Below are positions 3,087-19,743 of a stretch of 64,000 bases of DNA, piece after piece. The DNA lies in the IMG/VR virus record IMGVR_UViG_3300025840_000011; one strand, written 5' to 3'. The notes below the pieces were generated by a model. That model was given only the letters and a program-made list of their open reading frames with translations. It was not told the origin of the DNA and made no database searches. Source of the DNA: a virus. Position numbers and translations under genes: made by a program. Each line of letters starts with the position of its first letter. Positions within the stretch are counted from its first letter, which is position 1.

Positions 3087-6000
3087 ATGGTAAAACCGTA
3101 TACAGAACAGATTTTTAGAACTTCCTATAAGGATGATTTTAAAGATAGTGATAACTATCATCGAATCCTCTTTAACAGTGGACGTGCACTTCAGGCCCGT
3201 GAGTTAACTCAACTTCAAACCATAATCCAATCGGAGATTGAGAGGTTTGCAAGTAACATCTTTGTTGATGGTGCACCTGTAAATCCAGGCGGTATGTCAC
3301 ACTATAATGACCTACCGTTTATTAAAATTGCAGCGACTACCCCTTTACCCGCAGATAAAACAACTCTGAGAAACGTAATTCTCACAGGTGGTCAATCAGG
3401 ACTGAAGGTAAAGGTAGTACATGCTATTGCCGCAGATACCAATACGGGTGATCCCGAAACACTTTACGTTCAATATCTGGACGCTGGAGACCAAGCGGAT
3501 TCTGATGGGTTCGGTGGACCAGTTTTAGCAACCAACCCAAGAGTAACGCCCGGCGAAACGTTGACTGGTAATATTGGACTGTCAGCAGTAGCCTTTGACG
3601 TACAAACAACCAACACTTCAACAAACCCCGCAATCGGATTGGGTAACCTTTTTGAAGTAAACGCTGGTAGTTTCTATGTTCAGGGACACTTCGTGTTCAA
3701 CGAAAATCAAATTATTGTCACACAGAAGTATGCACAAAACTTTACTGGAGAGGTTGGATTTAAGGTTACGCAAGACATTGTAACTTCTTCTGATAACGAG
3801 GCGTTGTTTGACAACCAAGGTGCGACTCCAAACAGATCCTCGCCCGGCGCTGATCGATACAGAATTAGATTAACTCTTATTAAGAAAACAGATCTTGCGG
3901 CAGACGAAAACTATGTACGTGCGGCGAATATTTACCTTGGTGTGATTACCAGTCAGGCGAAGAAGGTTGATGGTTTCAATTCGGTAAAAGATTTTGTCGC
4001 TGTACGAAATAAAGAGATTTCTGGTAACTTCATTAAGAAGTATTTCAAGGCGAACTTTACACCCAATGATGATGACACATTCAAATTAAAGGTAACGCCT
4101 GGCACCGCATACATTAATGGTTATCGTGTTGATATCAGAGCACCTTCTACACTTCTGGTAGACAGACCAAAACAGACGTATACCTTTAACAACGAAAGTG
4201 TGCCGGTTGATTACGGTAACTACTTTGTGGTATCTAATACGGCTGGTGGTCAAGGTATGCCCGATTTCGGTTCGTGTGAAGAGATGACTCTTTATGATTC
4301 CGCAAATCTTGGTGGTACTGCAATTGGTACATGTAGAGCCCGTGCAATTACAGAGTGGCAGAACGGTCTCTATAAGTTACACGTGTTTAACATTCGAATC
4401 ACCACAGCGAACAAGAGTTCGAGAGATGTTCGTTCGTTCGGTAGTGCGGGAACATACTACAACAACTATGTAGCGAACAACCAGACTCTTTTTGATACCA
4501 AGAAAAAGAAACTGATGTTTGACCTTCCCTTCCCAAGACCTCAGTCTTTCAGTGATATGTCTGTCACGGGTCAAAGGGTAAAGAGTGGTACAGCAGATGG
4601 TTCAGGTAACGTTACAATAACATTAACCAGTCTTGACGAAGCGTTTACAAATACTGGTGATTGGGTAATCGCTAGTTCAACTGATGCGTTTGTTACGGGT
4701 TGGACTGTATCTGTTGGTGGAGGAGGAAACACTGCTACGATTAGTGGTCTGAGCAGCGGTACTATCTACGAGATTGCAACTTACGTTCGAAAGAGTAATG
4801 CAACTATTCGATCCAAGACTTTGCAAGAGACAACGACAACAGCGACTCTGGATTCGGATGGAAACGGAAACAAGTACATCGAACTTGGTAAGTCCGATAT
4901 CTATCAACTTTTGAGAGTCCGAAAATACGACTCCGATGGTGATAACATCTTCGGTAACTTCATTCTCGACACGGGTTTGAAAGACACTCACTACGATGAC
5001 GGTAGACTCATCTACAAAAACACTGGTCTTGACTCAGATCAGGAACCAGTATTCGTTCGATACAAATATTTCGAACACGGTAACGGTGACTTCTTTGCTG
5101 TAAACTCCTATACAGGACAGGTAAACTACAGAGATATTCCGGTACACAGAACAGATGATGGAAGACTTGTCTCACTTAGAGACGTAGTTGACTTCCGTCC
5201 TGCAACTAACGGTTCTGGATCTTTTAACGTTGTCAACGAACTACCACAACCTTCGGATCTAGTTTCCGCTGACGTGGCGTATTATGTTGGACGTAAAGAC
5301 AAGTTGATTCTCTCTCAGAACGGTGAGTTGAGATACTTGCAAGGTGTTCCTGAGTTGGATCCTTCTTTCCCAACAACACCCGTTGACTGTATCGATTTGT
5401 ATAAGTTCCACCTCGAACCTTTCACTCTTCACACCAAGGACTTGAAATCGCGTCTTCTTCCCATGAAGGGATACACAATGGAAGACATTGGTAAACTGGA
5501 TAAGAGGATTGATAAGGTAGAAGAGATGGCGACACTCTCTCTATTGGAGTTGTCAACCCTAAGTTTACAGGTACAAGACTCCAATGGTTTGAGTAGAACT
5601 AAGTCCGGTTTCTTTGTGGACAACTTTGCAAATCACCTATTCTCAGATACAAAGAACGTAGAGTATCGTGCGTCACTTGACCCACAAGAAAAACTTTTGC
5701 GTCCTTCACACAGAACACACAACATCGATTTGTTCTGGGATTCTGCACAGGCTGCACAAGATGCGGTGACTAAGAAAGGTGACTTGATATTACTTGATTA
5801 TACCGAAGTTAATTGGTTAGAACAACCTGTTGCGTCTAGGACAGAAAACCTAAACCCCTTCCACATCGAAAAGATCGAAGGACACATCGACTTGTCTCCC
5901 GCATCTGATCACTGGAGGGAGACGGAAATTGCAGCGCCTCACGTTATTGATCAGGGTGCGGTACTTGATACTTCTCAGGCGGTTCTTTGGAACTCGCACC

Positions 6001-8804
6001 AGTGGGATTGGGGTGGAGTAGACATTAACGATCTTCAAGTTGGTGCAACTTCATCTCAGGTAACAGGTACAAATACAACCACAACGGTAGATGTTAGTAC
6101 ACCTCGTATTACAGGTGTATCAGTAAACGTTTCTCAGGGGGAATGGGTTGTAACTGGTACTACTTCAAATACAGAGTCTTTGGGTACACAGTCCGAAATT
6201 GTTTCGCAAGGGACAGAAGAATTTGTGACTACTGAAGTGAACGGTTGGGAAATTGTACCTTGGGGGCCGGGCGATGTATGGGAATTTGGTCAAGGTGGTA
6301 GAGACACGTTTGTTCGTGCGGGTGTGGGAGGTGCGTTTGGATCTATCGTAACTACGACTGATACTGTGACTACAACTGATATCGAAACAAGAGAACAGTT
6401 CGAGACCGTCACAAACACCAGTTTGGCACAAACAACTACGACATCTACTGATACTGAGTGGACCACAGATACAACTACCACAACATCAACTAGTACAACC
6501 ACAACGGTTAACCGTGTGGCTGGTGAACATACAATTAGAGAAACTGTGGGTACTAACGTTATCGACGTTCTTACTATTCCTTTCATGCGTTCTCGTGTGG
6601 TAAGTTTCCGTGGTACTGGTCTCAGACCGAACACTCGTTACTTCCCATTCTTTGACCAAACTTACGTTGGTACATTCATCAAAGGAACTACAGATTTCGA
6701 AAGAATTTCGCAACGTAATCCTGAGTTCCGTAGAACTAACCTAATTCCTTCGGTTGGTCACAGTGAAGATGTCGCCGATGCACTTCTTCTTTCTGATGCA
6801 AACGGTACAGTAACAGGTGAGTTTGAGATTCCTAATAACAGTGCTATGCGATTCCAATGTGGTACAAGAGAATTTGCATTGATCGACATTAGTGTGTATA
6901 ATAAGGATGAGTCTCTCTCATTCGCAACGGCGTTGTATGATGCGGTTGGTCACATCGATGTAATGCAAGACACGGTTCATAGTACACGTGTATTGGAGAT
7001 TGTCGGTGAGTCCACTACAGTAGAAGACGTGAATTCAAATACAGAATCTACTGTTACGACAAGTAACGCTATTACGTCAAGTACTGCTACAGACATTCAG
7101 ACAGAATCTACTATCACCGAAACTGTAACGAACACAACAGAAACGGATACGGTAACGGACGTAACAGTCGTACCAATTCCACCTCCTGTCTATAGTGACC
7201 CTCTCGCACAGACGTTCTCTATTGACGAACAGAACGGTATATTTGCGACTGAGATTGAAGTTTACTTTGCAACTAAGGATGCGGGAGACATTCCGGTTCA
7301 ATTGCAACTTAGACCAGTTGTGAATGGTGTACCTAGTGCACATACTATTGTGCCTGGATCTACTGTATTCAAAACTCCCGCTCAGGTTACTGCGATCAAA
7401 GATCCGGATGATGTAAATATTCAAGATCCAACTACTGCGGAAATGTTGGCGAATGGAACGACATTTAAATTTGATGAACCGATCTTCCTGAAAGGTAGGA
7501 CAGAGTATGCAATCGTTCTTATCTCTGCCTCGATGGAATACAAGGTGTTCATCTCACACGTGACCGATTTCGAACTTGGATCTACAGAGAAGAGAATTGC
7601 GAAACAACCATACTTGGGATCGTTGTTCAAGTCTCAGAACTCTACGTTGTGGGAACCTTCTCAGGACGAAGACCTTGCATTTAAAATCAAGAGGGCGGAC
7701 TTCGTTTCTCAGGGTAACGCATATCTTGAAAACGTTAATGTACCCCCATTGGTTCTGTCGAAGAATCCCTTCCGTAGTTACAACGGTAGTAATACAATCA
7801 CCGTTATCAACAAGAACCACGGTTTGAGGTATGGTGACAAGACTAAGATTTTTGGACTTGACTCTTCGACAACTTACAACGGTATTCTTGGTTCGGACAT
7901 TATGGGTGAAAGACTCGTTACCCGTGTAGACGGAACTGCATTCCAGTTCGCCGCTGACTCATCTGCAAATGCGGACGGAAGGTTTGGTGGTGGTAAGTGT
8001 ACTGCACATACTAACATGACTTTTGAAATTGTCAACCCCACAATTATGACAATGAAACCTGAGACAACTAACATTACTATGGTTGGTAAGTTCTTGTCAC
8101 AATCTTCTCTGGTTGACTCTGCCGATGGTAGATTTAGTCAGTCCGCAGCTTGGCAACCATTGAAGAATGGTTCGAACTATTACTTTGATGCACCTAGGAT
8201 GATTGCGAATAGAATGAATGAGGCGGACGAATTGGGTGTCTATTCATATCCCAAGTCTTCGGTAATCAGGATGTACATGACTACAACTGACAGTAGGGTT
8301 TCTCCGGTAATCGACATGCAACGTGCGGGTCTGACTCTTGTTGGTAACTTGATTGACAAACAAGATTCTGCTGCTACGAATGGTTTCAACGTACCAATTA
8401 GTTGGGTTGATGAAAGACACCCATTCGCCGGTACGCACCTTGCAAAACACGTTACAATTCCAGTAACTCTGGAACAGGATGCAATTGGACTTAAAATCAT
8501 ACTGGCTGCAAACAGACACCCCTCAACAGATTTCGATGTCTATTACAAGACTACTGATGCGGAAAGTGGACTGTTGAACAGTTCTTGGGTTCCTGCATAT
8601 TCGGACAATACAATGCCTACCGATACCAACCCGTCAATCTATCGTGAGTATCGATACACGATTGGTGGTTTTGGGGATACCAACAATACAGGTGGTACTG
8701 ACTTGACTGCGTTCCGGAAGTTCCAAGTAAAGATTGTTTTCAAATCAACAAATAGTGCGAAGGTTCCAATCGTTCGAGACTTGAGGGTCATCGCTGTAAT
8801 TTAA
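3087..8804 (+). CDS. Large virion structural protein (VrlC/DUF4815-like)
   Basis: YHRILF..GRALQARELTQLQ, PGADRY, GFFVDNF and DPLAQTF motifs typical of this family in marine T4-like phages. Confidence 0.8.
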   Translation: MVKPYTEQIFRTSYKDDFKDSDNYHRILFNSGRALQARELTQLQTIIQSEIERFASNIFVDGAPVNPGGMSHYNDLPFIKIAATTPLPADKTTLRNVILTGGQSGLKVKVVHAIAADTNTGDPETLYVQYLDAGDQADSDGFGGPVLATNPRVTPGETLTGNIGLSAVAFDVQTTNTSTNPAIGLGNLFEVNAGSFYVQGHFVFNENQIIVTQKYAQNFTGEVGFKVTQDIVTSSDNEALFDNQGATPNRSSPGADRYRIRLTLIKKTDLAADENYVRAANIYLGVITSQAKKVDGFNSVKDFVAVRNKEISGNFIKKYFKANFTPNDDDTFKLKVTPGTAYINGYRVDIRAPSTLLVDRPKQTYTFNNESVPVDYGNYFVVSNTAGGQGMPDFGSCEEMTLYDSANLGGTAIGTCRARAITEWQNGLYKLHVFNIRITTANKSSRDVRSFGSAGTYYNNYVANNQTLFDTKKKKLMFDLPFPRPQSFSDMSVTGQRVKSGTADGSGNVTITLTSLDEAFTNTGDWVIASSTDAFVTGWTVSVGGGGNTATISGLSSGTIYEIATYVRKSNATIRSKTLQETTTTATLDSDGNGNKYIELGKSDIYQLLRVRKYDSDGDNIFGNFILDTGLKDTHYDDGRLIYKNTGLDSDQEPVFVRYKYFEHGNGDFFAVNSYTGQVNYRDIPVHRTDDGRLVSLRDVVDFRPATNGSGSFNVVNELPQPSDLVSADVAYYVGRKDKLILSQNGELRYLQGVPELDPSFPTTPVDCIDLYKFHLEPFTLHTKDLKSRLLPMKGYTMEDIGKLDKRIDKVEEMATLSLLELSTLSLQVQDSNGLSRTKSGFFVDNFANHLFSDTKNVEYRASLDPQEKLLRPSHRTHNIDLFWDSAQAAQDAVTKKGDLILLDYTEVNWLEQPVASRTENLNPFHIEKIEGHIDLSPASDHWRETEIAAPHVIDQGAVLDTSQAVLWNSHQWDWGGVDINDLQVGATSSQVTGTNTTTTVDVSTPRITGVSVNVSQGEWVVTGTTSNTESLGTQSEIVSQGTEEFVTTEVNGWEIVPWGPGDVWEFGQGGRDTFVRAGVGGAFGSIVTTTDTVTTTDIETREQFETVTNTSLAQTTTTSTDTEWTTDTTTTTSTSTTTTVNRVAGEHTIRETVGTNVIDVLTIPFMRSRVVSFRGTGLRPNTRYFPFFDQTYVGTFIKGTTDFERISQRNPEFRRTNLIPSVGHSEDVADALLLSDANGTVTGEFEIPNNSAMRFQCGTREFALIDISVYNKDESLSFATALYDAVGHIDVMQDTVHSTRVLEIVGESTTVEDVNSNTESTVTTSNAITSSTATDIQTESTITETVTNTTETDTVTDVTVVPIPPPVYSDPLAQTFSIDEQNGIFATEIEVYFATKDAGDIPVQLQLRPVVNGVPSAHTIVPGSTVFKTPAQVTAIKDPDDVNIQDPTTAEMLANGTTFKFDEPIFLKGRTEYAIVLISASMEYKVFISHVTDFELGSTEKRIAKQPYLGSLFKSQNSTLWEPSQDEDLAFKIKRADFVSQGNAYLENVNVPPLVLSKNPFRSYNGSNTITVINKNHGLRYGDKTKIFGLDSSTTYNGILGSDIMGERLVTRVDGTAFQFAADSSANADGRFGGGKCTAHTNMTFEIVNPTIMTMKPETTNITMVGKFLSQSSLVDSADGRFSQSAAWQPLKNGSNYYFDAPRMIANRMNEADELGVYSYPKSSVIRMYMTTTDSRVSPVIDMQRAGLTLVGNLIDKQDSAATNGFNVPISWVDERHPFAGTHLAKHVTIPVTLEQDAIGLKIILAANRHPSTDFDVYYKTTDAESGLLNSSWVPAYSDNTMPTDTNPSIYREYRYTIGGFGDTNNTGGTDLTAFRKFQVKIVFKSTNSAKVPIVRDLRVIAVI

Positions 8805-9037: not shown

Positions 9038-11644
9038 ATGGCACGCCCTATTACACTCATAACAGATACGTTTAAGGTACTTAGAGATAACATCAATACT
9101 ATCTCTAATAACGTTGGCGATCCGGATCTTCTAACCACAACGACGAGAGCGTTCACTCTAGGAAACACTGGGGTCGCGCAAAGATCAGACTCTTCTGATG
9201 TTGTTAGTGCGTTAAACGAACTCGACTCTGACCTTCACGGTGCAGGCGGTGGTGATGTAAAGAATGATCTGAACTACATCTCCTACGCAATCAATCGTGT
9301 CCGTGATAGTGGTATGACGGGTGCAATGAACGCTATCGATGCATATATCGGTGGTGACTCAGATACTCTAAATGTTGAAGCGAACACGATCAAAGATGCG
9401 ATCAACGAGATCGAAGCGGTCTTTGACGCAAGTACACTCAAGATTAATGCGGGAGGTGACTTCCGATTTGATGGTGCGGGTGACCTAGAGGTTAACTTAG
9501 ATGGAGGGGATGTTACCTTCCTCAGTGACTCCGATCAGTACGCACATTTTAATCTTAGAGACAGTGCCGCCGATTTTGTACAAACATACACCCACAGTCT
9601 CAGGATTAGAACTGCGGACTCTGCGGCCGGTAACGTATACTTAGATGCGGGGGGAGACATTACTCTCGACGCAGACGGAGGTAACGTATATCTTAAGGAC
9701 GGTGGTGCAACGCATTTTGACTACTCTCTGGGTTCAACCAACACGGTAACAGTAACCGGAAACTTGACACATGATGTTTCTGGTGATATAGTACTGGACG
9801 CCGGTACTCTTAACATAGATTTCTTAGGGGCGGGGACAACACGTTTCGCCTATGGTCTTGGTGCATCTAACACACTAGATGTCACAGGTAATCTTTCCGA
9901 AGTGGTTTCAGGAACCTACACAGAGAGTGCGGGTGGAAACTATCATGTCGGAAACACTGGGACATACGAAGTAGTACCTACCGGAAACGCTACTGTGGAT
10001 GCGGGTGGAGATATCATCCTTGACGCAGATGGTGGTAACGTCACACTCAAAGATGACGATAGTGCGGCATTTGATTTCAGTCTCGTAGACGGTATTGTCT
10101 CTAGAACTGGTCACACTACACTTGATGTTTCTGGTAACATTACTCTTGACGCTGATGGTGGTAACACCTACATCAAAGACGGCGGTACTACTCAGTTCCA
10201 GTTCATTGCGGGAACCAACAAAGAGATTGACGTTCCGGCTGGCAACTTGACAGTTGACGTTGCGGGTGATATAGTACTCGACGCAGACGGCGGAGACATC
10301 GACTTTAAAGATAATGGAACTGCAAGGTTCTCTTATGGTCTAGGTGCAACGAATACACTTGAGGTTAACGGTAATCTGACTCAGACAGTATCGGGTAACG
10401 TAATCGATAGTGCTAATGGGACATATACTGTAACTTCTACAGACGATATGTCACATACTACTCTTGGTAGATACACTCTATCAGCAGATAGTGCTGTTAT
10501 TATAACATCTGATTCTGCAATTGTCAATAGTGCCATTGGTTTTGCTGTAAACACAACTAACGGTTATATTGATCTTAATGCTTCTGGTGCATACGGAACA
10601 GTAAGAGTTGATGCCGATCATGCTATTGTCCTTGATGCTGACGATGGTGACATCTATATTAATGATGGAGGAATCACTGCTTACCACATTATGTCATCTG
10701 GTACAATTTCTCGTGACGGAGACTTGACACTAGACATTTCTGGTGATATAACACTAGATGCAGATGGCGGAGACGTATTCCTCAAAGACGGTGGAACTCA
10801 GTACGGTGCGTTAACCAACACATCCGGTAACCTCATCGTCAAGTCCGGTACGACTACTGCACTGACATTCTCTGGTGCGAACGTTACTACGGGTGGCAAC
10901 ATCACGGTAGGTGGGAACACCATTAGTAGAACAGGTGCATTGACACTAGATGTTTCTAGTGGTATTAGTCTTGACGCTGGTACTGGTATCGTATACCTGA
11001 AAGACAATGGTATCACTTACGGATCGTTAAGAAATCCTGCCGGTGCAAAAACCCTTGACATCTATAGTAATACGACCAAGGCAATCGGGATCGATAGTTC
11101 TTCGAACGTCACGATTACCGGAACGGTCACTGAGGGTACTACACTTGGCACAACATCAACTCACTTGGGTGGTGCGATCAACGAAATCCACACTGAGTTG
11201 GATTCCGCTACTACTGATCTTCAGACAACCAAGGGTAGGGTAACTAATCTCGAATCTCAGATGGATTCTAATGAGGGAATCATTGGTGTCTCAGTAGAAT
11301 GGAATGCGGACAATACCTACAGTTGGATTCACTCAACGTCTAACAGGGCCGCAATCAACGATCTCGACTCTGCGATTGGACATCTTGCAGACTTAGACAA
11401 TACCACTTTCGCTGGTGCAAATGATAAAGACAATGTTGTGACTGCATTGAACGTACTTGCGGGTGACGTGCAAGACGTTCAGGGTGATGCGGGAACACTA
11501 GATAGTAGAATCGGTTCACTTGCAAACCTGGCCGCCTTCTTCGATAGTGCGGGGGCGACATCAAGTATTGTAAACGCCCTAAATCACATGGCAAGTAGAG
11601 TGGTCAATGTGTATGACGAAAATGGCACTCTGTTAAACACTTAA
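9038..11644 (+). CDS. Tail fibre-like protein with D(A/V/I)xGDIxLDADGG repeats
   Basis: About 9 GDIxLDA(D)GG-like repeats; AINE/ALNE coiled segments; Gly/Asp/Thr-rich. Confidence 0.7.
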   Translation: MARPITLITDTFKVLRDNINTISNNVGDPDLLTTTTRAFTLGNTGVAQRSDSSDVVSALNELDSDLHGAGGGDVKNDLNYISYAINRVRDSGMTGAMNAIDAYIGGDSDTLNVEANTIKDAINEIEAVFDASTLKINAGGDFRFDGAGDLEVNLDGGDVTFLSDSDQYAHFNLRDSAADFVQTYTHSLRIRTADSAAGNVYLDAGGDITLDADGGNVYLKDGGATHFDYSLGSTNTVTVTGNLTHDVSGDIVLDAGTLNIDFLGAGTTRFAYGLGASNTLDVTGNLSEVVSGTYTESAGGNYHVGNTGTYEVVPTGNATVDAGGDIILDADGGNVTLKDDDSAAFDFSLVDGIVSRTGHTTLDVSGNITLDADGGNTYIKDGGTTQFQFIAGTNKEIDVPAGNLTVDVAGDIVLDADGGDIDFKDNGTARFSYGLGATNTLEVNGNLTQTVSGNVIDSANGTYTVTSTDDMSHTTLGRYTLSADSAVIITSDSAIVNSAIGFAVNTTNGYIDLNASGAYGTVRVDADHAIVLDADDGDIYINDGGITAYHIMSSGTISRDGDLTLDISGDITLDADGGDVFLKDGGTQYGALTNTSGNLIVKSGTTTALTFSGANVTTGGNITVGGNTISRTGALTLDVSSGISLDAGTGIVYLKDNGITYGSLRNPAGAKTLDIYSNTTKAIGIDSSSNVTITGTVTEGTTLGTTSTHLGGAINEIHTELDSATTDLQTTKGRVTNLESQMDSNEGIIGVSVEWNADNTYSWIHSTSNRAAINDLDSAIGHLADLDNTTFAGANDKDNVVTALNVLAGDVQDVQGDAGTLDSRIGSLANLAAFFDSAGATSSIVNALNHMASRVVNVYDENGTLLNT

Positions 11645-11661: not shown

Positions 11662-14256
11662 ATGCCAATTGCGAAGAGTAAGCCATTAAAACTCAACAGT
11701 CCCGATCAAGGCGATCTAAAGAGACTTAGTAGTACAGAAGAAAATTACCTATCATATCTGATTGGGCAACACTTCTGTGCGGATAGTGATGGCGACAATG
11801 AGATTGGAAATCTAACACTTACTAGTACTAATGCAAACACCGTAGGTTCGTTTGTTGATACCCTCATAAACGAACCAAGTGGAACGCATCCAACTTCTGC
11901 AATTACGTCAACATCAACTACGACTACTCTGTACCAAAAATACGGTACAGCGGACGAGACTGATTCCGACTTCACAAAACCTATTGCATACTACAACCCT
12001 CTCACAGACGGTAGTACCGATCTTGGTGCGGAAGGTGTTTATGAGATGGCGGATTCTGACATGAATCGTTTAGTCGATAGACTAAATGGTCGAATCGCGT
12101 TGTCCGATTATCTTGGATCTTTTAAACTCAGTAATAGTACGACATCGCCTGGGGCAGGATATGTCAAATTCATAGAAGACGTTTTTACAGATAATATCGA
12201 AGTCGATACGAATACTACAGACAATTTTTCTATCTGGAGAAGAGAGAGTCAGACTGCACCTTCGTCTATTACAGACAGTGATGGTAACACAACACTCCTA
12301 TCCTGCATAAACAGAGACAGTGGTGGTAACTACCTCGGCATTGGTGTGATGTCGGATCGTGCGATAAAAGTTTCTCTTGGACAACGTGCAAAGACTAGAC
12401 GTTCTGCTTCTGATGGGATTGGTTCATATGTTTTGAGATCAAGTTCTCAGGGTGCACCTTCTGGTAGTGGTAGTTGGAGAGCAGTGGGTTCTGCGACAAA
12501 CCGTAGAAGAGACCTAATTCAAACTTCGTATACTCGTACCAGAAACTCCACGTATACCAGAGACAGACAGTCAACCTATGCGGGAATTTATAACAGAACT
12601 AGAGTATCGAATTACACTAGGAATAGAACGTCCACATATTCTAGAAATTTCGTAGGCGACTTTGTTGCGACTTATCAAGGCAACTACATTGCAAACTTTA
12701 TAGGTAACTATTCTCGTGGTTTCGTAGGTAATTACTCACGTAATTTTGCGGGTAACTATATTGGAGACTTTATTGGTAACTATCAAAGAGGGTTTGTCGG
12801 TAACTATACCGGAGACTTTACTGGTAACTACGCCCGTAACTTTCTTACGGGGTATTCCCGAAACTTCACTCGTGATAGGACATCAAATCAGACCGCTGTA
12901 AGAACGCAGACTCGTACCTCTTCATATTCTAGAACTTTCTCTAGGGTAAGAAGTTCAGCGTATACCAGAACGAGGACTTCTTATTACTCAAGAAATAGTG
13001 TTGCAAATAGAAACTCTCAGTACAACAGAACCTCTACACGTACTAGGTATGAATACTACTCTCGTTCTTTTGCGGGTAACTACGCACGTGCGTATACCAG
13101 AGATCGTCAACAAACTAGACACTCGACTTATAATAGAACCTTTATAGGTAACTATTCCCGTAACTATACACGGTTCTTTACTGGAGACTACACAAGAAAC
13201 TCTTTTTATAACAGAACGGCATATTACAATCGGTTTCGTCCGAATCCAAACTGGGATCCTTGGAATGCAGCTCAAGGCCCCATATATTACTTAGGAGTCT
13301 ACTCCCGAAATATCGCAACGGAAGGGCCTCTGTCATATAGTAGATCGTTTACCGGAAACTATTCAGGTAATGCACCGAACTACAGTAGAACTATTGTTTC
13401 GATTGGTCCACCTTGGCAGTGGAACTGGATTGCGGGCGAGTTCCCATCAGTCTATACTAGAACTTCACAATATACAGCGGCTTTCCAAAGAGTTCGTGTA
13501 GAAACTTATAACGCGAATTTTACCAGAAACCGAACCTCGAATTACGCAAGAGCGTTTACGAGAGATCGGATCTCATCGTATGCAAGACTTTTTGTCGCCA
13601 ACTATATTGGAAACTATCAGCGAGTATTTACAAGAAGTCGGTCCTCAAATTTCTCACGTAATTTTGGGGGGAACTTTATAGGTGACTATGCGAGAACTTT
13701 CATAGGTGACTTCACTGGTAATTACTCACGTGATTTTGGGGGTAATTACTCACGTAACTTTACACGAAACAGGAATTCTGCATACAGTAGAAATTTCATT
13801 GGTAACTACACTGGGGACTTCTTAGCGAATTATATTGGTAATTACGCACGTAACTACTTTAGAGTAACACGGACATCTACATATACTAGAAACTCAACTA
13901 GAGATTCTCAGAGAACTATAGGTAGTGATTACACTCGAAATTCTACAAGAGACTCGACTAGAGTAAGATCAAGTACTTACACTAGAACTCGAAGTTCTAC
14001 GTATACTAGAGACAGTACCGTTGGTCCTTATACAAGAAACAGGAACTCAAATTTCACGGCAACTAGAACGTCCTCATATTCTAGAGATTTCATAGGCGAT
14101 TATACTAGAGGATTTTTAGGAGATTATATTGGCGATTATGCAAGAGGGTTTATTGGAAATTACTCTCGAACCTTCACTGGTAACTACACAGGTGAGACTG
14201 TCGGCAGTTCAACGGAACTTATCGAAACGTATACCTTGTATGTTAAATATGCATAA
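11662..14256 (+). CDS. Mirror-repeat (predicted giant beta-hairpin) fibre protein A
   Basis: Globular N-domain paralogous to 14278; YxRx/RxSx/FxGx tetrapeptide repeats at 12529-14196. Confidence 0.75.
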   Translation: MPIAKSKPLKLNSPDQGDLKRLSSTEENYLSYLIGQHFCADSDGDNEIGNLTLTSTNANTVGSFVDTLINEPSGTHPTSAITSTSTTTTLYQKYGTADETDSDFTKPIAYYNPLTDGSTDLGAEGVYEMADSDMNRLVDRLNGRIALSDYLGSFKLSNSTTSPGAGYVKFIEDVFTDNIEVDTNTTDNFSIWRRESQTAPSSITDSDGNTTLLSCINRDSGGNYLGIGVMSDRAIKVSLGQRAKTRRSASDGIGSYVLRSSSQGAPSGSGSWRAVGSATNRRRDLIQTSYTRTRNSTYTRDRQSTYAGIYNRTRVSNYTRNRTSTYSRNFVGDFVATYQGNYIANFIGNYSRGFVGNYSRNFAGNYIGDFIGNYQRGFVGNYTGDFTGNYARNFLTGYSRNFTRDRTSNQTAVRTQTRTSSYSRTFSRVRSSAYTRTRTSYYSRNSVANRNSQYNRTSTRTRYEYYSRSFAGNYARAYTRDRQQTRHSTYNRTFIGNYSRNYTRFFTGDYTRNSFYNRTAYYNRFRPNPNWDPWNAAQGPIYYLGVYSRNIATEGPLSYSRSFTGNYSGNAPNYSRTIVSIGPPWQWNWIAGEFPSVYTRTSQYTAAFQRVRVETYNANFTRNRTSNYARAFTRDRISSYARLFVANYIGNYQRVFTRSRSSNFSRNFGGNFIGDYARTFIGDFTGNYSRDFGGNYSRNFTRNRNSAYSRNFIGNYTGDFLANYIGNYARNYFRVTRTSTYTRNSTRDSQRTIGSDYTRNSTRDSTRVRSSTYTRTRSSTYTRDSTVGPYTRNRNSNFTATRTSSYSRDFIGDYTRGFLGDYIGDYARGFIGNYSRTFTGNYTGETVGSSTELIETYTLYVKYA
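12529..14196 (+). repeat. Tetrapeptide repeat array with 56 mirrored units per arm
   Basis: Manual parse: arm 1 is 12529-13200, arm 2 is 13519-14196. Confidence 0.85.
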
Positions 14257-14277: not shown

Positions 14278-17200
14278 ATGTCATCTAACATACCATTGAA
14301 ATTAGAGGGAACCGCAGGCGATCTGCAAGAGATGACCTCTGGTGAGGAGAACTACATCTCTTATATCGTCGGTAAGGATAACCTTGCCGCGACTACTGGT
14401 GTGTCGGATTTAACTCTAACATCTACTGGTAACACCTCTATTGGATCGTTCGTTAACACCTTCTACAACGAAGCGGTGGGAACTCACCCAGCGTCTTCAA
14501 TTACTTCGGGGTCAACGACTACAACAGTATATCAGGTTGCGGGAACAGAATCTCCGGACACTGGTAGTCTTCGTCCCATAGGTTACGCAACAGATGGCGG
14601 TTCCACTCCTAGTTTTTATGAGATGCCTGATTCTGATCTGAACGTTCTTGCGCGTCGAGTAAACTCACGTATTGCAACTTCGGACTATCCGGGCATCTAC
14701 AAGTTAGCGACTGCCGCACCTAGTGGTGACTATGCAGTAAAAGTTTCTAACGTATTTACGGATACACAGACAGACGGTACTACAACACAATATAACATCT
14801 ATCAAAGAACCGCAATGACCGCACCCACCACAGTCAGACCCGTTGGTCTTAGTGGTGGCGATCTTAAAGAGATGGCGGACAGTGACATCTCAGACTTGAT
14901 AGGATCTTTTGTGCGTACACTTCGTGCAACGTCTGGAGAAATAGGATCATACCAACTGAGATCCTCATCACAAGGTGCACCAACAGATGCGGGTACTTGG
15001 ACTTCGGTAGGAACTGCAACAGATACGAAGAAAAATATTGTTGAAACAAACTACACCCGAAACAGGAATTCTGCATACAGTAGGACTCGAAGTTCGAACT
15101 ATACACGGACACGGGGTTCTACGTATACTCGCACGTCTCTTAGAAGCCGTGTCTCGAATTACGCTGGTGATTATGTTGGTAATTATACCAGAAACTTTAT
15201 TGGTGATTACACCCGCGATTATCTGGGTAATTATATTGGCGACTTTATCGGGAACTACTCTCGCACCAGAGTATCAACATACTCTCGAACCAGAATAACA
15301 GACTACGCCGGTAACTTTATTGGTAACTACTCCAGAACTAGAGTATCCAATTATACAAGGGATAGTCAAAGGACTTCGGTTCGCACCAGAGTCTCTGCGT
15401 ACTCCAGAACCAGACCTTCTACTTACCAAAGGGATAGAGTGACCAACTTTGTCGGTGACTTTATTGGTAACTACACTCGCAATAGAATATCCAACTACAC
15501 AAGAACTCGTGTGTCATCTTACGCTGGGGACTATGTTGGTAACTACGCACGTAACTTCCTTGGTAACTATAACAGAAATTTCTTGGGTAACTATCAGAGA
15601 AGTTTTGCCGGTGATTACGTAGGTAACTATACTAGAAACTCAACTAGAGATTCTCAGAGAACCAGAACTTCTACCTACACTCGAACGAGTACACGTACAA
15701 GACTTTCAACATATACTCGAACGAGTACACGTACAAGAAGTTCAGCGTACACACGAAACAGTACCAGAAACCGTGTATCTAACTATCTGGGTAACTACAA
15801 CAGAAACTTCGCTGGTAATTACGTAGGTAACTATAACAGAAGTTTTGTGGGTAACTACGTAGGTAACTTCCTTGGTAACTACGTGGGTGATTTTGTTGGA
15901 GACTATACTCGACAAGGTGCATACGCTCGCGCATATGCGGGTGACTATCTGGGTAATGTCAACTACGTAGGTAACTACGCAGGAACCGTAAACTATCAAC
16001 GTACTCGTGCAACCAATTATCAGAGGACTAGTACTGCGCCTCTTGATTATACTCGTGCACGTCCCGCAACTTTAGATTATACACGTACTCGTGCAACCAA
16101 CTACGCAAGAACTGTAGCATACACTCGTGCACGTCCTGCAACTTTAGATTATACAAGGACCAGTACACGTACAAGTACTGCAACTGGTAACTATACTAGG
16201 AACCGTGTAGCTACACTGGACTACACCAGAGATCGTCAGCAAAACTATGCACGTACTTTGTATTACACTAGAACCAGTACTGGATCGGCCTCATATACCA
16301 GAAACAGAGTTGGTTCACAAGGATACAGTAGAACACTTAACTACACACGTGATGTCTACTATTACAGATCGACTCCGGCTCCGTATGGTTCGGTGTATGG
16401 TAGAACCCAAAACTTCTCTCGTACACTTACGTACTACAGAAACGCAACGTTCACCGGAAACTACAGTCGTAACCTCAGTTATACGGGTGACTATTTCCGT
16501 CTCGTATACTACTTGGCGAACTTCGTAGGTAACTACACTCGTAACGCTACATATACCGGAGATTATACTCGTACATTCAGTTACGCTGGTAACTTTACAG
16601 GTAACTACACTCGTAGCGTAACCTATACTGGTAACTACGCTCGTACCATAAACTATACGGGTGACTTCGTTGGTAACTACACTCGTAACGTAACCTATAC
16701 TGGTAACTATTTAAGAACCGGATCATATTTGGGTGACTACGTTGGCAACTTCGTGGGTGACTATGTTAATGAAAATGCGGTTGCCTATGCGGGAGACTAC
16801 ATCAACGAAAACGTAAATTACGTTGGTAACTATGCACGAAACTTCTATCGAACACTCAACTATCAACGTACCCGTGTAACCGACTATCAACGTACCCGTG
16901 CAACTGATTACACACGTACTCGCGTGTCTGCTTACAGTAGAACAAGTACCCGAACCAGAGTATCCGCTTATTCTCAAAACTACGCAAGGACTTTCGTAGG
17001 GGACTTCACTGGTAACTATGCGAGAAACTTCGCCGGTGACTATGTGGGTAACTACTCAAGAGGTTTCGCTGGTGACTATGTGGGTAACTATGCACGTAAC
17101 TTCCTTGGTAACTATACTGGGGACTTTATTGGCAACTACACAAGAACTTCTTTGAGGACTCGTTATTCACAATATACAAGAACTCGCGTATCGTCCTATA

Positions 17201-17784
17201 CTAGAAACAGATCGTCAACCTACGCAAGAACCTCTACACGTACTAGTAACAGAGATTTCATTGGTGACTACACTCGTGGGTTCCTTGGTAATTACACACG
17301 GAACAGCGTCAATACCTTTGCGGGTAACTTTATAGGTGACTACGCCAGAAACTTTATTGGTAACTATACACGCAACTTCGAAGGTAACTACCTTGGTAAC
17401 TATGTCGGAGACTATACACGTGACTTCGTGGGTAACTACTCAAGAGACAGAGTAACTATATTCACGGGTGACTTTATCGGTAACTATGCGAGAAACTTCA
17501 TTGGAGAGTATTCAAGAAACTCAACCAGAGATTCGCAGAGAACCAGAACCTCAGCGTTTACTAGAACCCGAAATTCTGCGTACACTCGTACATCAACAAG
17601 AACAAGTACACAAACCTTCGCTGGAGATTACGTGGGTAACTACGCACGTGACTTCATTGGAGACTACAGTCGTGGGTTCATTGGAAACTATCAAAGAACT
17701 TTCGTTGGTAACTACACAGGTACAACCATCGATTCCGGTTCGTCCACAATCCAAACATACACGTTATATGTGAGATCCGCTTGA
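14278..17784 (+). CDS. Mirror-repeat (predicted giant beta-hairpin) fibre protein B
   Basis: Paralog of 11662 (PLKL...EENY(L/I)SY, GTHP, EM.DSD, Y.LRSSSQGAP, C-terminal TYTLYV). Confidence 0.75.
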   Translation: MSSNIPLKLEGTAGDLQEMTSGEENYISYIVGKDNLAATTGVSDLTLTSTGNTSIGSFVNTFYNEAVGTHPASSITSGSTTTTVYQVAGTESPDTGSLRPIGYATDGGSTPSFYEMPDSDLNVLARRVNSRIATSDYPGIYKLATAAPSGDYAVKVSNVFTDTQTDGTTTQYNIYQRTAMTAPTTVRPVGLSGGDLKEMADSDISDLIGSFVRTLRATSGEIGSYQLRSSSQGAPTDAGTWTSVGTATDTKKNIVETNYTRNRNSAYSRTRSSNYTRTRGSTYTRTSLRSRVSNYAGDYVGNYTRNFIGDYTRDYLGNYIGDFIGNYSRTRVSTYSRTRITDYAGNFIGNYSRTRVSNYTRDSQRTSVRTRVSAYSRTRPSTYQRDRVTNFVGDFIGNYTRNRISNYTRTRVSSYAGDYVGNYARNFLGNYNRNFLGNYQRSFAGDYVGNYTRNSTRDSQRTRTSTYTRTSTRTRLSTYTRTSTRTRSSAYTRNSTRNRVSNYLGNYNRNFAGNYVGNYNRSFVGNYVGNFLGNYVGDFVGDYTRQGAYARAYAGDYLGNVNYVGNYAGTVNYQRTRATNYQRTSTAPLDYTRARPATLDYTRTRATNYARTVAYTRARPATLDYTRTSTRTSTATGNYTRNRVATLDYTRDRQQNYARTLYYTRTSTGSASYTRNRVGSQGYSRTLNYTRDVYYYRSTPAPYGSVYGRTQNFSRTLTYYRNATFTGNYSRNLSYTGDYFRLVYYLANFVGNYTRNATYTGDYTRTFSYAGNFTGNYTRSVTYTGNYARTINYTGDFVGNYTRNVTYTGNYLRTGSYLGDYVGNFVGDYVNENAVAYAGDYINENVNYVGNYARNFYRTLNYQRTRVTDYQRTRATDYTRTRVSAYSRTSTRTRVSAYSQNYARTFVGDFTGNYARNFAGDYVGNYSRGFAGDYVGNYARNFLGNYTGDFIGNYTRTSLRTRYSQYTRTRVSSYTRNRSSTYARTSTRTSNRDFIGDYTRGFLGNYTRNSVNTFAGNFIGDYARNFIGNYTRNFEGNYLGNYVGDYTRDFVGNYSRDRVTIFTGDFIGNYARNFIGEYSRNSTRDSQRTRTSAFTRTRNSAYTRTSTRTSTQTFAGDYVGNYARDFIGDYSRGFIGNYQRTFVGNYTGTTIDSGSSTIQTYTLYVRSA
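15052..17724 (+). repeat. Tetrapeptide repeat array mirrored about TPAPYGSV (16372-16395)
   Basis: Arm 1 is 440 aa and arm 2 is 443 aa; the 2-residue stutters are mirrored. Confidence 0.9.
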
Positions 17785-17853: not shown

Positions 17854-18321
17854 ATGAGTTATAGGAAATGGCTTGACAACGCCTTCTGGGAAACCAGTGA
17901 AAAAGAAATGTTAAACTGCATCCTTGAGATGGAGGATGATGTTGGTCGAGTAACTCGACAAGTAATGAAGTTAAAAAAGACTGACTCCGAAGGAAACGAG
18001 AATCCGGACTTCGTTGAGGTTGTTGAATTCTTGGGTCAAGAACTCATTGACGAGAACACCGAAGAACGCAACGTTCGCAAGAAGAGAGAATCTGAAGAAG
18101 AGAAACAACGACAACTTGAACACGCTAAGGCGAGAAAGTTGGAAGAACTCTTCAACTACAAGTTGGAAGCCTTTGAGGTTCCGGAGATCAAAGACTCTAA
18201 AAACCGTCCTCTAAAATCTAAACTTCGTCGGGCAAAGAATAAGGTCGAAGTGAACCTATATGCAATTATGATCCTGATGGATGAACTCAAGAAGGCGGAA
18301 GAGAGTGACGGAGAAGAGTAG
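17854..18321 (+). CDS. Hypothetical protein (possible fibre assembly chaperone)
   Basis: AGGAG RBS; charged helical protein directly after the fibre genes; function is inferred only. Confidence 0.6.
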   Translation: MSYRKWLDNAFWETSEKEMLNCILEMEDDVGRVTRQVMKLKKTDSEGNENPDFVEVVEFLGQELIDENTEERNVRKKRESEEEKQRQLEHAKARKLEELFNYKLEAFEVPEIKDSKNRPLKSKLRRAKNKVEVNLYAIMILMDELKKAEESDGEE

Positions 18322-19039
18322 AGGTTTTGTAATTGTCGCATCTAAGAAAATTAATTTCTATAGGTACGCAATCAATCTGGCAGAGTCTATCCTTGACTAT
18401 TACGAGGATGCGAAGATCACACTCTTTTGTGAAGAGTGGATGTTCGAAGAGATCCATCGTGAAATCTTTGATCAAGTAATCTGGTGTTCCGATCACTATC
18501 GTGCAAAGTTATGGGGTATGGCGAAAACCCCATATGATCAAACGATGTACCTTGATGCGGATATGGAAGTCGAACATGAAGACATCCTAACCTGTTGGGA
18601 CGAATTCGATAAGGGTGATGTAGTATTCTCCAAACTCACCGAAGAAAGAAGTTACACCTATGCAGAGTGGGAGTTCGACACACCGGAAGGAAAGACAGCG
18701 TTTACTTTGTGTGGTGGTATATGTCTCTATGATATGACCGTCCCTCTGGTAAAAGAATTCATGGATGACTGGTGGGATTTGACAAGGCGTCAAATGGATC
18801 ATGAATGGTGGCCAAAAGGATACGCTGAGTCTCTTCGTTCTTGGGATCAGTTCTCACTCTGGTGGTTGACCACCAAAGAAGAGAAGTACAAGGACTTGAA
18901 GATCGGTGTCTTTGAAGACGATGTTCGTTGGAATTATTATAACGCATGGAACTGGGCAAGGACAAAACCCGAATCGGGTAAACCAGTAATCATTAGACAT
19001 TACTCATGCGGTCTTGATAAGGATGGATATATTTTATGA
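18305..19039 (+). CDS. GT-A fold glycosyltransferase (GT8-like)
   Basis: KLWGMAKTPYDQTMYLDAD (DxD), GG and DQFSLW motifs, C-terminal IIRHY; likely GTG start at 18305 (ORF track gives 18281). Confidence 0.7.
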   Translation: MTEKSRGFVIVASKKINFYRYAINLAESILDYYEDAKITLFCEEWMFEEIHREIFDQVIWCSDHYRAKLWGMAKTPYDQTMYLDADMEVEHEDILTCWDEFDKGDVVFSKLTEERSYTYAEWEFDTPEGKTAFTLCGGICLYDMTVPLVKEFMDDWWDLTRRQMDHEWWPKGYAESLRSWDQFSLWWLTTKEEKYKDLKIGVFEDDVRWNYYNAWNWARTKPESGKPVIIRHYSCGLDKDGYIL

Positions 19040-19743
19040 TGACAGACATACCTCTCCGGAACTCTGAGTTCCTAGAGATGTTGGAAAACTGTAGAAAACT
19101 GTTAACCGATGACGTAGAGGGTTTTCAAAAAAATCTTAGATATCACTGTGAGTCCGAACTTGATGACACCGAAGGTCAACGAGAGAAGTGGACCAGCGAA
19201 GATTATCTCAAGTATGTGGTTGAGGTTGAAGGTGATAAACATGAAGGGTTTCCTGATCACCTAGTTGGGTATGGTTTCAAACCACACCAACCAGATCAAA
19301 ATGTCAAGTTGTTCAAACCTGGCCACGATCCAGTGTGGACTAATGAGTTCATCACTAAACTCTACGCGCACAATACAGATCTGGTAAATTTTCTTGGTGC
19401 AAAGAACAATGCGTTGTTCTGTTACTATCCGCCAGGCGGGTACATCTCATGGCATAACAATTGGAATGCGTCTGCATACAATTTGATATGTTCTTGGTCT
19501 GAGACTGGAGATGGGTGGTTCAAGTATCTTGATCCCAAAACAAGAGAGATAGTAACCATTCCGGACGAATCTGGTTGGCAGATCAAGGCCGGATACTTTG
19601 GTGGTCAACACGAAAAGGATAGGGTGTGTTATCATGCAGCGTCTACGGACTGTTGGAGGTTAACGGTATCCTTTATCTGGAACCACATGGAGAACTCACA
19701 AAACCTTCAGGACGATCTGTTATACGAAATTAGTTCTGAATAA
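19036..19743 (+). CDS. 2OG-Fe(II) oxygenase-like (DSBH) protein
   Basis: YYPPGGYISWHNN...YHAA...RLTVSF; H-x-N replaces H-x-D. Confidence 0.6.
   Translation: MMTDIPLRNSEFLEMLENCRKLLTDDVEGFQKNLRYHCESELDDTEGQREKWTSEDYLKYVVEVEGDKHEGFPDHLVGYGFKPHQPDQNVKLFKPGHDPVWTNEFITKLYAHNTDLVNFLGAKNNALFCYYPPGGYISWHNNWNASAYNLICSWSETGDGWFKYLDPKTREIVTIPDESGWQIKAGYFGGQHEKDRVCYHAASTDCWRLTVSFIWNHMENSQNLQDDLLYEISSE

Follow-up and report, generated by a model that had tools for sequence, protein, structure and literature searches.

How does a single polypeptide come to carry two long repeat arms, the second of which, read backward, complements the first unit by unit? The question is raised by the gene for P0001, at positions 14,278 to 17,784 of a 64,000-nucleotide stretch of the IMG/VR virus record IMGVR_UViG_3300025840_000011 (the window; position 1 is its first letter). 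We found that the mirror complementarity in P0001 is real and far beyond chance. We propose that P0001 is probably a fibre protein whose shaft is an intramolecular antiparallel fold-back with a register barcode, closed at its base by the C-terminal strand. The gene and its parts, residue numbers being those of P0001, are:

14278..17784, plus strand: gene for P0001, the proposed fold-back fibre protein, 1168 residues, a single open frame with the stop codon included.
14278..15051, plus strand: conserved acidic N-terminal domain (N-domain), residues 1–258, with 47–69% identity among homologs, an isoelectric point (pI) of 4.4 and an AlphaFold2 predicted local distance difference test (pLDDT) mostly >90.
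15052..15915, plus strand: outer part of arm 1, residues 259–546, 72 four-residue units without stutter, with strict periods of 4 and 2; 63/72 are complementary to reversed arm 2.
15916..16371, plus strand: inner part of arm 1, residues 547–698, mostly YxRx and R/S-initial units, with 14 two-residue stutters (parsed by hand).
16372..16395, plus strand: Pro-rich turn TPAPYGSV, residues 699–706, the putative fold point and the centre of the best mirror alignment.
16396..16860, plus strand: inner part of arm 2, residues 707–861, mostly YxRx and aromatic-x-Gly-x units, with 14 stutters (parsed by hand).
16861..17724, plus strand: outer part of arm 2, residues 862–1149, 72 units without stutter, with unit pairing and strict alternation.
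17725..17781, plus strand: C-terminal linker and conserved strand ...IQTYTLYVRSA, residues 1150–1168, with residues invariant in homologs and a strand in the AlphaFold2 model.

The repeat region thus spans 891 residues (259–1149; 15052–17724) and comprises arms of 440 (259–698) and 443 (707–1149) residues around the turn at 699–706. A previous reading of this DNA, made from its letters and without database searches (the sequence-only reading), had given exactly this parsing and these coordinates. The arms are built from tetrapeptides of three classes: YxRx, R/S-initial units (RxSx, SxRx) and aromatic-x-Gly-x units, (F/Y)xGx. The aromatic residues of the outer arms follow a strict period of 4, and a two-residue alternation is unbroken over 288 residues per arm. 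One face (unit positions 1 and 3) consists of Arg (90), Tyr (68), Gly (51), Ser (38) and Phe (33), and the other (positions 2 and 4) of Thr, Asn, Val, Asp, Ala, Ile and Leu. The Gly units follow the pattern (F/Y)-(V/I/A/L)-G-(N/D), always with an aromatic residue two positions away, and their partner units, R-V-S-x or S-T-R-T, contain no aromatic residue. A collagen-like or polyglycine-II pattern, with Gly at every third residue, was not found; Gly recurs at multiples of 4. Arg occurs 127 times in the region, and Lys, His, Cys, Met and Trp never; the net charge is +80 and the pI 10.2. Total avoidance of Lys alongside 14% Arg is unusual and might stem from a constraint of chemistry, for instance modification, protease resistance or guanidinium–aromatic contacts.

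Pairing was scored with arm 1 read forward from residue 259 and arm 2 backward from residue 1149, under the rule that YxRx faces YxRx and that R- or S-initial units face aromatic-x-Gly-x. With strict classes and no gaps, 63 of the 72 outer unit pairs are complementary. With looser classes the number rises to 66 (43 R/S–Gly pairs and 23 YxRx–YxRx pairs) and 6 pairs deviate, which reproduces the count in the sequence-only reading. The 43 comprise 41 strictly R/S-initial units facing aromatic-x-Gly and the S-initial units STQT and SVNT, which also face Gly units; YxRx stands opposite YxRx in 22 or 23 pairs depending on class strictness. Across 100,000 permutations of arm 2, the mean was 23.0 (standard deviation 3.9) and the maximum 40 (z = 10 for the observed 63), and a first-order Markov null reached at most 45 (z = 8.3). 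Complementarity did not exceed 37 in other registers or 42 in parallel orientation. Over the whole region, the mirror scored 60.5 in a gapped alignment of unit tokens, whereas shuffles averaged 18.0 ± 3.3 (z = 13) and the parallel reading gave 28. The shuffle test that had been suggested for the pattern therefore places the mirror score far above shuffled, shifted and parallel controls.

The inner part was parsed by hand, matching residues 543–865 letter for letter; the automatic tokeniser slips frame there. Each arm holds 14 stutters, and the blocks of units between them (1,1,1,2,2,3,2,3,2,3,2,4,2,3) are identical on both. None of 200,000 block-order permutations matched all 14, the best reaching 12, so the mirrored stutters first noticed by eye hold up. 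The unit pairs of the inner part are complementary in 24 of 32 cases. The small bulges NAVA and NVN, each opposite VN, had been named as the source of the 3-residue difference in arm length, and the hand parse confirms that they explain it.

A DNA inverted repeat was considered as the cause of the mirror and ruled out; at the DNA level there are only two short overlapping palindromes. We also know of no DNA process that copies a peptide in reverse order. For these two reasons, selection on the protein is the only plausible cause. The pattern could in principle be a by-product of composition or repeat expansion without structural meaning, given that the region is of low complexity, its DNA is rich in repeats and shifted registers reach 37/72. 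The tests contradict such an origin, which we regard as barely credible: the observed scores stand z = 8–13 above composition-preserving and Markov nulls, the DNA contains no inverted repeat, and diverged homologs preserve both compensatory changes and equal arm lengths.

The evidence from homologs comes from a large and unnamed family. One search with the N-domain returned 98 proteins of 642–1758 residues, and an exhaustive search returned 410 clusters at 50% identity. All of these relatives are unnamed, and among deposited phage genomes only Phage C48C1 has a homolog, a 3347-residue 'hypothetical protein'. Full-length members all end in a conserved ...ETYTLYVR, in which Y1161, L1163 and Y1164 are invariant across 111 aligned homologs. 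Pfam-A and PHROGs v4 gave no family match for whole proteins or for N-domains alone, and a PDB sequence search with residues 1–258 and 259–1168 gave no chain at E <= 1. The literature on the family, on Phage C48C1 and on long two-stranded fibre ribbons yielded nothing relevant. The claim that no phage fibre of this architecture has been described is consistent with these searches, which found neither a publication nor a database family.

The three unit classes of P0001 recur in fifteen homologs. Their gapped local mirror alignments score z = 3.5–13 over Markov-shuffled tokens, with the parallel orientation always lower, and in 8 of the 15 the alignment begins at a constant offset from the conserved anchors at the two termini. 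The paired arms of these proteins differ by no more than 5 residues, over arm lengths of 98–436 and central regions of 8–361 residues. Because the arms remain equal across this range, insertions and deletions must have been matched on both. A paralog encoded directly upstream of P0001 has arms of its own:

11662..14256, plus strand: paralog P0002, 864 residues, of the same architecture with another unit order, with arms of 216 and 218 residues and a 114-residue central region (mirror alignment z = 7.5).

A closer comparison is provided by P0229, an ortholog of 1144 residues on a related 146-kb contig with matching gene order. Its self-complementarity is 61/72, whereas P0001 arm 1 against P0229 arm 2 gives 43/72 and the reverse combination 46/72. 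The two proteins differ in unit class at 22 positions of arm 1 and 25 of arm 2, of which 18 are changed on both (hypergeometric P = 5e-8), and 17 of these 18 are complementary in both proteins. Several of the paired changes are shared segmental changes, and independent events are fewer than 17. Covariation and indels confined to one arm had been suggested as tests, and homologs alter their two arms together, in length and in the 18 shared changes alike.

Partner choice also appears to be specific to each chain. In 13 of 15 proteins, arm 1 scores better with the arm 2 of its own chain than with any other; the cases that deviate involve near-identical relatives or a much longer protein. Heterodimeric pairing of paralogs was considered and rejected, with cross scores near background: P0013 and P0229, paralogs that share one phage, match each other at 19/50, about chance, against self scores of 41/50 and 61/72, and the arms of P0002 score 11–13 against those of P0001, where the self scores are 29 and 60.

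A pair matrix was also learned leave-one-out on 141 family members, with the pairing rule not assumed. It gave log-odds of 2.76 for Gly against S.R, 2.69 for Gly against R.S and 2.49 for Y.R against Y.R, and it ranked mirror above parallel in 135 of the 141. Matrix-free mutual information at fixed anchor offsets, taken per protein or pooled with a between-protein control, peaks near the expected offset and is non-discriminating, being dominated by linker-length variation and periodicity. Covariation of unit positions 2 and 4 did not fix the register at residue level, as it is confounded by the classes of neighbouring units. Three metagenome members (P0065, P0098 and P0102) use other repeat dialects, for example the 8-residue NFxGPQPA and NFxGVRxV, and by eye their GPQ-type units stand opposite GVR-type units across the mirror. 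The pairing rule of P0001 may be one of several in the family.

Can the ends of the arms be brought together in a model? AlphaFold2 was run on full-length P0001 as a monomer with the 111-sequence alignment. In the well-modelled N-domain, strand 241–265 has a pLDDT of about 90 or more, and residues 1140–1166 form a long strand beside it (pLDDT 72–98). Structural alignments of this compact domain span residues 41–1168, with the C-end included in the N-domain fold. In the model, the C-terminal TYTLYV strand thereby rejoins the N-terminal domain, as the sequence-only reading had anticipated, at pLDDT 92–98. The best fold matches of the N-domain with the C-terminal strand are 8b6v (Z 7.3, 123 aligned residues), 2qp2 (Z 6.6) and 3tow (Z 5.9). 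The best N-domain matches are beta-prism-like, with Z of 5.3–7.3, inside the tool's stated background for unmatched models. Foldseek with the full model against BFVD found no match at E <= 0.001.

These results are consistent with pairing of the two arms within one chain. The arms might instead pair only between chains, arm 1 with arm 2 of another chain, in an antiparallel or strand-swapped homo-oligomer that lacks any intrachain hairpin. Antiparallel identical chains would leave the i + j = constant signature that a hairpin leaves, and the sequence statistics of P0001 do not distinguish the two arrangements. Nonetheless, AlphaFold2 closes the base of P0001 within a single chain with high confidence, and the complementarity reaches right to the 8-residue Pro/Gly turn. 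A further argument comes from the Phage C48C1 homolog:

L002:1-10041 (OQ984149.1 141011-151054): Phage C48C1 homolog, 3347 residues, with a homologous N-domain and C-end.

This protein has at least two separate self-complementary stems: an internal stem, residues 880–1293 against 1378–1787 (z = 15.7), around an 84-residue domain, and an outer stem of ~17 units that joins its two ends. Because the internal stem (centre near residue ~1335) is off-centre and accompanied by the outer stem, a single antiparallel dimer axis is insufficient, and the two axes are incompatible with one antiparallel dimer. We therefore consider pairing solely between chains distinctly unlikely.

The C48C1 protein looks like a multi-stem or branched form of the P0001 architecture. 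Globular domains are inserted in it at several points, and the Gly-type repeats that flank them lack R/S partners. Residues 2008–2081 and 2083–2156 (L002:6022-6468) are identical 74-residue tandem copies one residue apart, a repeat that arose either by very recent duplication or as an artefact of assembly.

Several observations count against the proposed fold-back shaft. Across the outer and inner parts, ~17% of unit pairs are non-complementary. The signal is weaker in the other repeat dialects, with a median z of 2.4 and z > 3 in 44/141 members. In the full-length AlphaFold2 model, the repeats have a pLDDT of 30–40 and no secondary structure, and the long hairpin that the sequence-only reading had proposed to look for by structure prediction was not reproduced in any model. 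A single-sequence model of residues 585–820 folds arm 2 onto itself as a meander (pLDDT 70–85) and leaves arm 1 unmodelled. We know of no precedent for an isolated two-stranded ribbon with 440 residues per arm, and it is doubtful that a lone monomeric ribbon would be stable at a net charge of +80 with a semi-hydrophobic second face. Finally, the virion-fibre role is suggested only by gene position and conserved synteny. Two further predictions are less directional. The same model of residues 585–820 breaks its strand exactly at 699–706, at low confidence (mean pLDDT 50), and a complex prediction of arm 1 (275–418) with arm 2 (990–1133), run without controls, gave an interaction prediction score from aligned errors (ipSAE) of 0.00 and weighs neither way.

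The single-sequence model bears on whether the arms, even if adjoining, are extended. They could lie side by side in a compact body, either a two-layer beta sandwich or a ribbon-wound solenoid cornered at the stutters, rather than in a 145 nm filament. The stutters of the inner third, which fall every 4–16 residues and are mirrored on the arms, could be paired corners, and the single-sequence model cuts arm 2 into strands of 8–22 residues at these stutters (pLDDT 70–85). That model is of low overall confidence (mean pLDDT 50), however, and the outer 288 residues of each arm are stutter-free and would be hard to coil in short strands. In arm 1, they include a strictly alternating run of 52 residues without Gly or Pro; because of such stretches, long continuous strands are likelier than short solenoid strands. 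The sequence-only reading had held that a parallel solenoid would refute it; none was predicted, and the 52-residue stretch speaks against short strands. We judge a compact body to be unlikely.

A second alternative refines the fold-back shaft rather than replacing it. P0001 may fold back as proposed and be an obligate oligomer, for example three chains in a six-stranded antiparallel needle, in which each outward strand would touch the return strands of its own and a neighbouring chain and the Thr/Val/Asn face would be buried. Phage fibres are typically trimers, and the tip of T4 gp37 is a six-stranded antiparallel needle of three chains (PMC9659904). The semi-hydrophobic face of P0001, with Val, Ile, Leu or Ala at position 2 of the Gly units, favours burial, and an obligate oligomer could give the failure of monomer AlphaFold2 on the repeats. 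On the other hand, the repeats lack His altogether, and with it His pairs, as well as any other known core-filling motif. To our knowledge, the weak best fold matches of the N-domain are not trimerisation modules, which also counts against an oligomer. We hold this refinement to be quite possible, though short of probable.

Taken together, the mirror score, the co-varying arms and the modelled closure of the base give good support to the antiparallel fold-back of the sequence-only reading. From them we infer intrachain pairing as a beta ribbon, a barcode function, and roles as a virion fibre and in host binding. In the model that we favour, the chain would leave the N-terminal domain as a beta strand of ~440 residues, turn back at the 8-residue Pro-rich turn and then run antiparallel to itself, and the conserved C-terminal strand would insert into the N-terminal domain and close the base. 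The aperiodic order of the three unit classes would serve as a barcode, setting the register and preventing cross-pairing of co-expressed paralogs; we favour this reading because an aperiodic order leaves one fully complementary register only. In relatives, the far end of the shaft would bear a central region of 68–361 residues, presumably host-binding. The stem of P0001 would run to a bare turn, and its Arg/Tyr-rich, Lys-free shaft (+80) may itself contact anionic cell-surface polymers.

Beyond this model, it is a tentative possibility that beta strands can carry an evolvable, genetically encoded pairing code that sets antiparallel pairing, exact in register and specific in partner, across hundreds of residues, with phage protein stem-loops of 98–436 residues per arm, multi-stem chains and, in P0001, a shaft in the form of a thin ribbon of ~100–145 nm. 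The specific proposal of the sequence-only reading, a two-arm ribbon fully extended to 145 nm and held by Arg/Gly knob-hole packing and Tyr–Arg stacking, is hypothetical. The architecture appears to be new at the level of its sequence logic, from which we infer its three-dimensional form.

The genomic setting identifies the source as an uncultured T4-like marine myovirus, with the P0001 gene in its baseplate/fibre block. The window is part of an 82-kb viral contig, whose tail sheath shares 46% identity with that of Phage C48C1 and 41–44% with those of pelagimyophages and cyanomyophages. Upstream of P0002 and P0001 lie baseplate-wedge genes, a 1905-residue DUF4815 protein and an 868-residue beta-helix-like fibre protein; neck and sheath genes lie downstream of the fibre genes, and the gene order is conserved in relatives. 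The 1905-residue giant baseplate-associated protein (3087–8804) matches DUF4815 (E = 2.5e-52) and phrog_358, and a 1910-residue counterpart occupies the matching position in contigs L005/L006. The 868-residue protein (9038–11644) has many GGD(I/V)xLDADGG-like repeats, a coiled-coil-like C-terminal part and weak PHROG matches to baseplate hub and spike (phrog_430, phrog_9992). This protein is likely to be a beta-helical fibre or spike of the conventional kind. The fibre genes are followed by a conserved trio:

17854..19743, plus strand: three small genes encoding proteins of 155, 252 and 235 residues; the trio is also found after the homologs of Phage C48C1 and of contigs L005/L006.

Pfam gave nothing below E = 0.007 for these three proteins. 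The 155-residue protein is very acidic and rich in Lys and Glu, the 252-residue protein has a weak hint of glycosyltransferase family 2 (E = 0.11), and the 235-residue protein resembles viral ESM Atlas clusters named Asp/Asn beta-hydroxylase (score 0.92), which is no more than a lead. In the basic repeats of P0001, every fourth residue is Asn or Asp, and there are 33 N-x-S/T sequons. The trio could modify or chaperone these repeats.

Our analysis has implications for several fields. If the ribbon is real, it represents a novel route to long, thin protein fibres, in which pairing residues, register and partner are set by sequence alone, and if the code is read correctly, both the folding principle and the fibre architecture would be new to the literature. 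For phage biology, the locus leads to a large unannotated fibre family (410 clusters) in marine T4-like phages. For structure prediction, it presents repeats that AlphaFold2 leaves unmodelled despite a very strong sequence signal. P0001 is also a directly testable case of compensatory evolution between the halves of one polypeptide. For protein design, it would, if the model is true, offer a natural orthogonal barcode for programmable assembly of beta ribbons, akin to heterospecific coiled coils or nucleic-acid hybridisation.

Which known systems does P0001 resemble? For the N-domain, the best fold matches are the beta-prism-like MABP and MACPF C-terminal domains, at 7–12% sequence identity and with Z in the tool's range for unrelated models; no functional link is implied. 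For the shaft, the nearest known system is the needle at the tip of T4 gp37 (PDB 2XGF). At the distal tip of gp37, antiparallel strands arise from a chain that runs out and back (Bartual et al. 2010, as in PMC9659904), and the needle is held by seven iron ions on His residues (PMC6957217). The likeness lies in the out-and-back topology, in a receptor-binding part at the far end and in segment ends that lie close together. P0001 displays the out-and-back feature at the level of its letters only, and its base closure comes from the AlphaFold2 model. The gp37 needle is formed by the last ~215 residues of three chains in a trimer, whereas the arms of P0001 have 440 residues each. The repeats of P0001 have no His, and hence no His-x-His iron motif, P0001 has no PDB sequence similarity, and a unit pairing rule is not described for gp37.

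Triple-stranded beta-helices, such as those of T4 gp5C with its VxGxxxxx octapeptides and of gp12, share with P0001 Gly repeats at multiples of 4, beta structure and a baseplate/fibre location (PMC3004832). Their three chains are parallel and in register, an arrangement that would predict no mirror complementarity. In P0001 the mirror outscores the parallel alignment (60.5 vs 28), as it does in 135/141 family members under the learned matrix. At the level of single units, the Gly units, with an aromatic residue two positions off, fit a known stabilising pairing. Merkel and Regan reportedly described in 1998 such cross-strand aromatic–glycine pairing in antiparallel sheets as 'aromatic rescue of glycine'. 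As an analogy only, the logic resembles that of nucleic-acid stem-loops, which likewise combine a pairing rule for antiparallel segments of a single chain, matched bulges, compensatory substitutions, variable loops and, as in the C48C1 protein, several stems. The difference is that the units of P0001 are tetrapeptides that follow a looser rule, under which ~83% of pairs are complementary.

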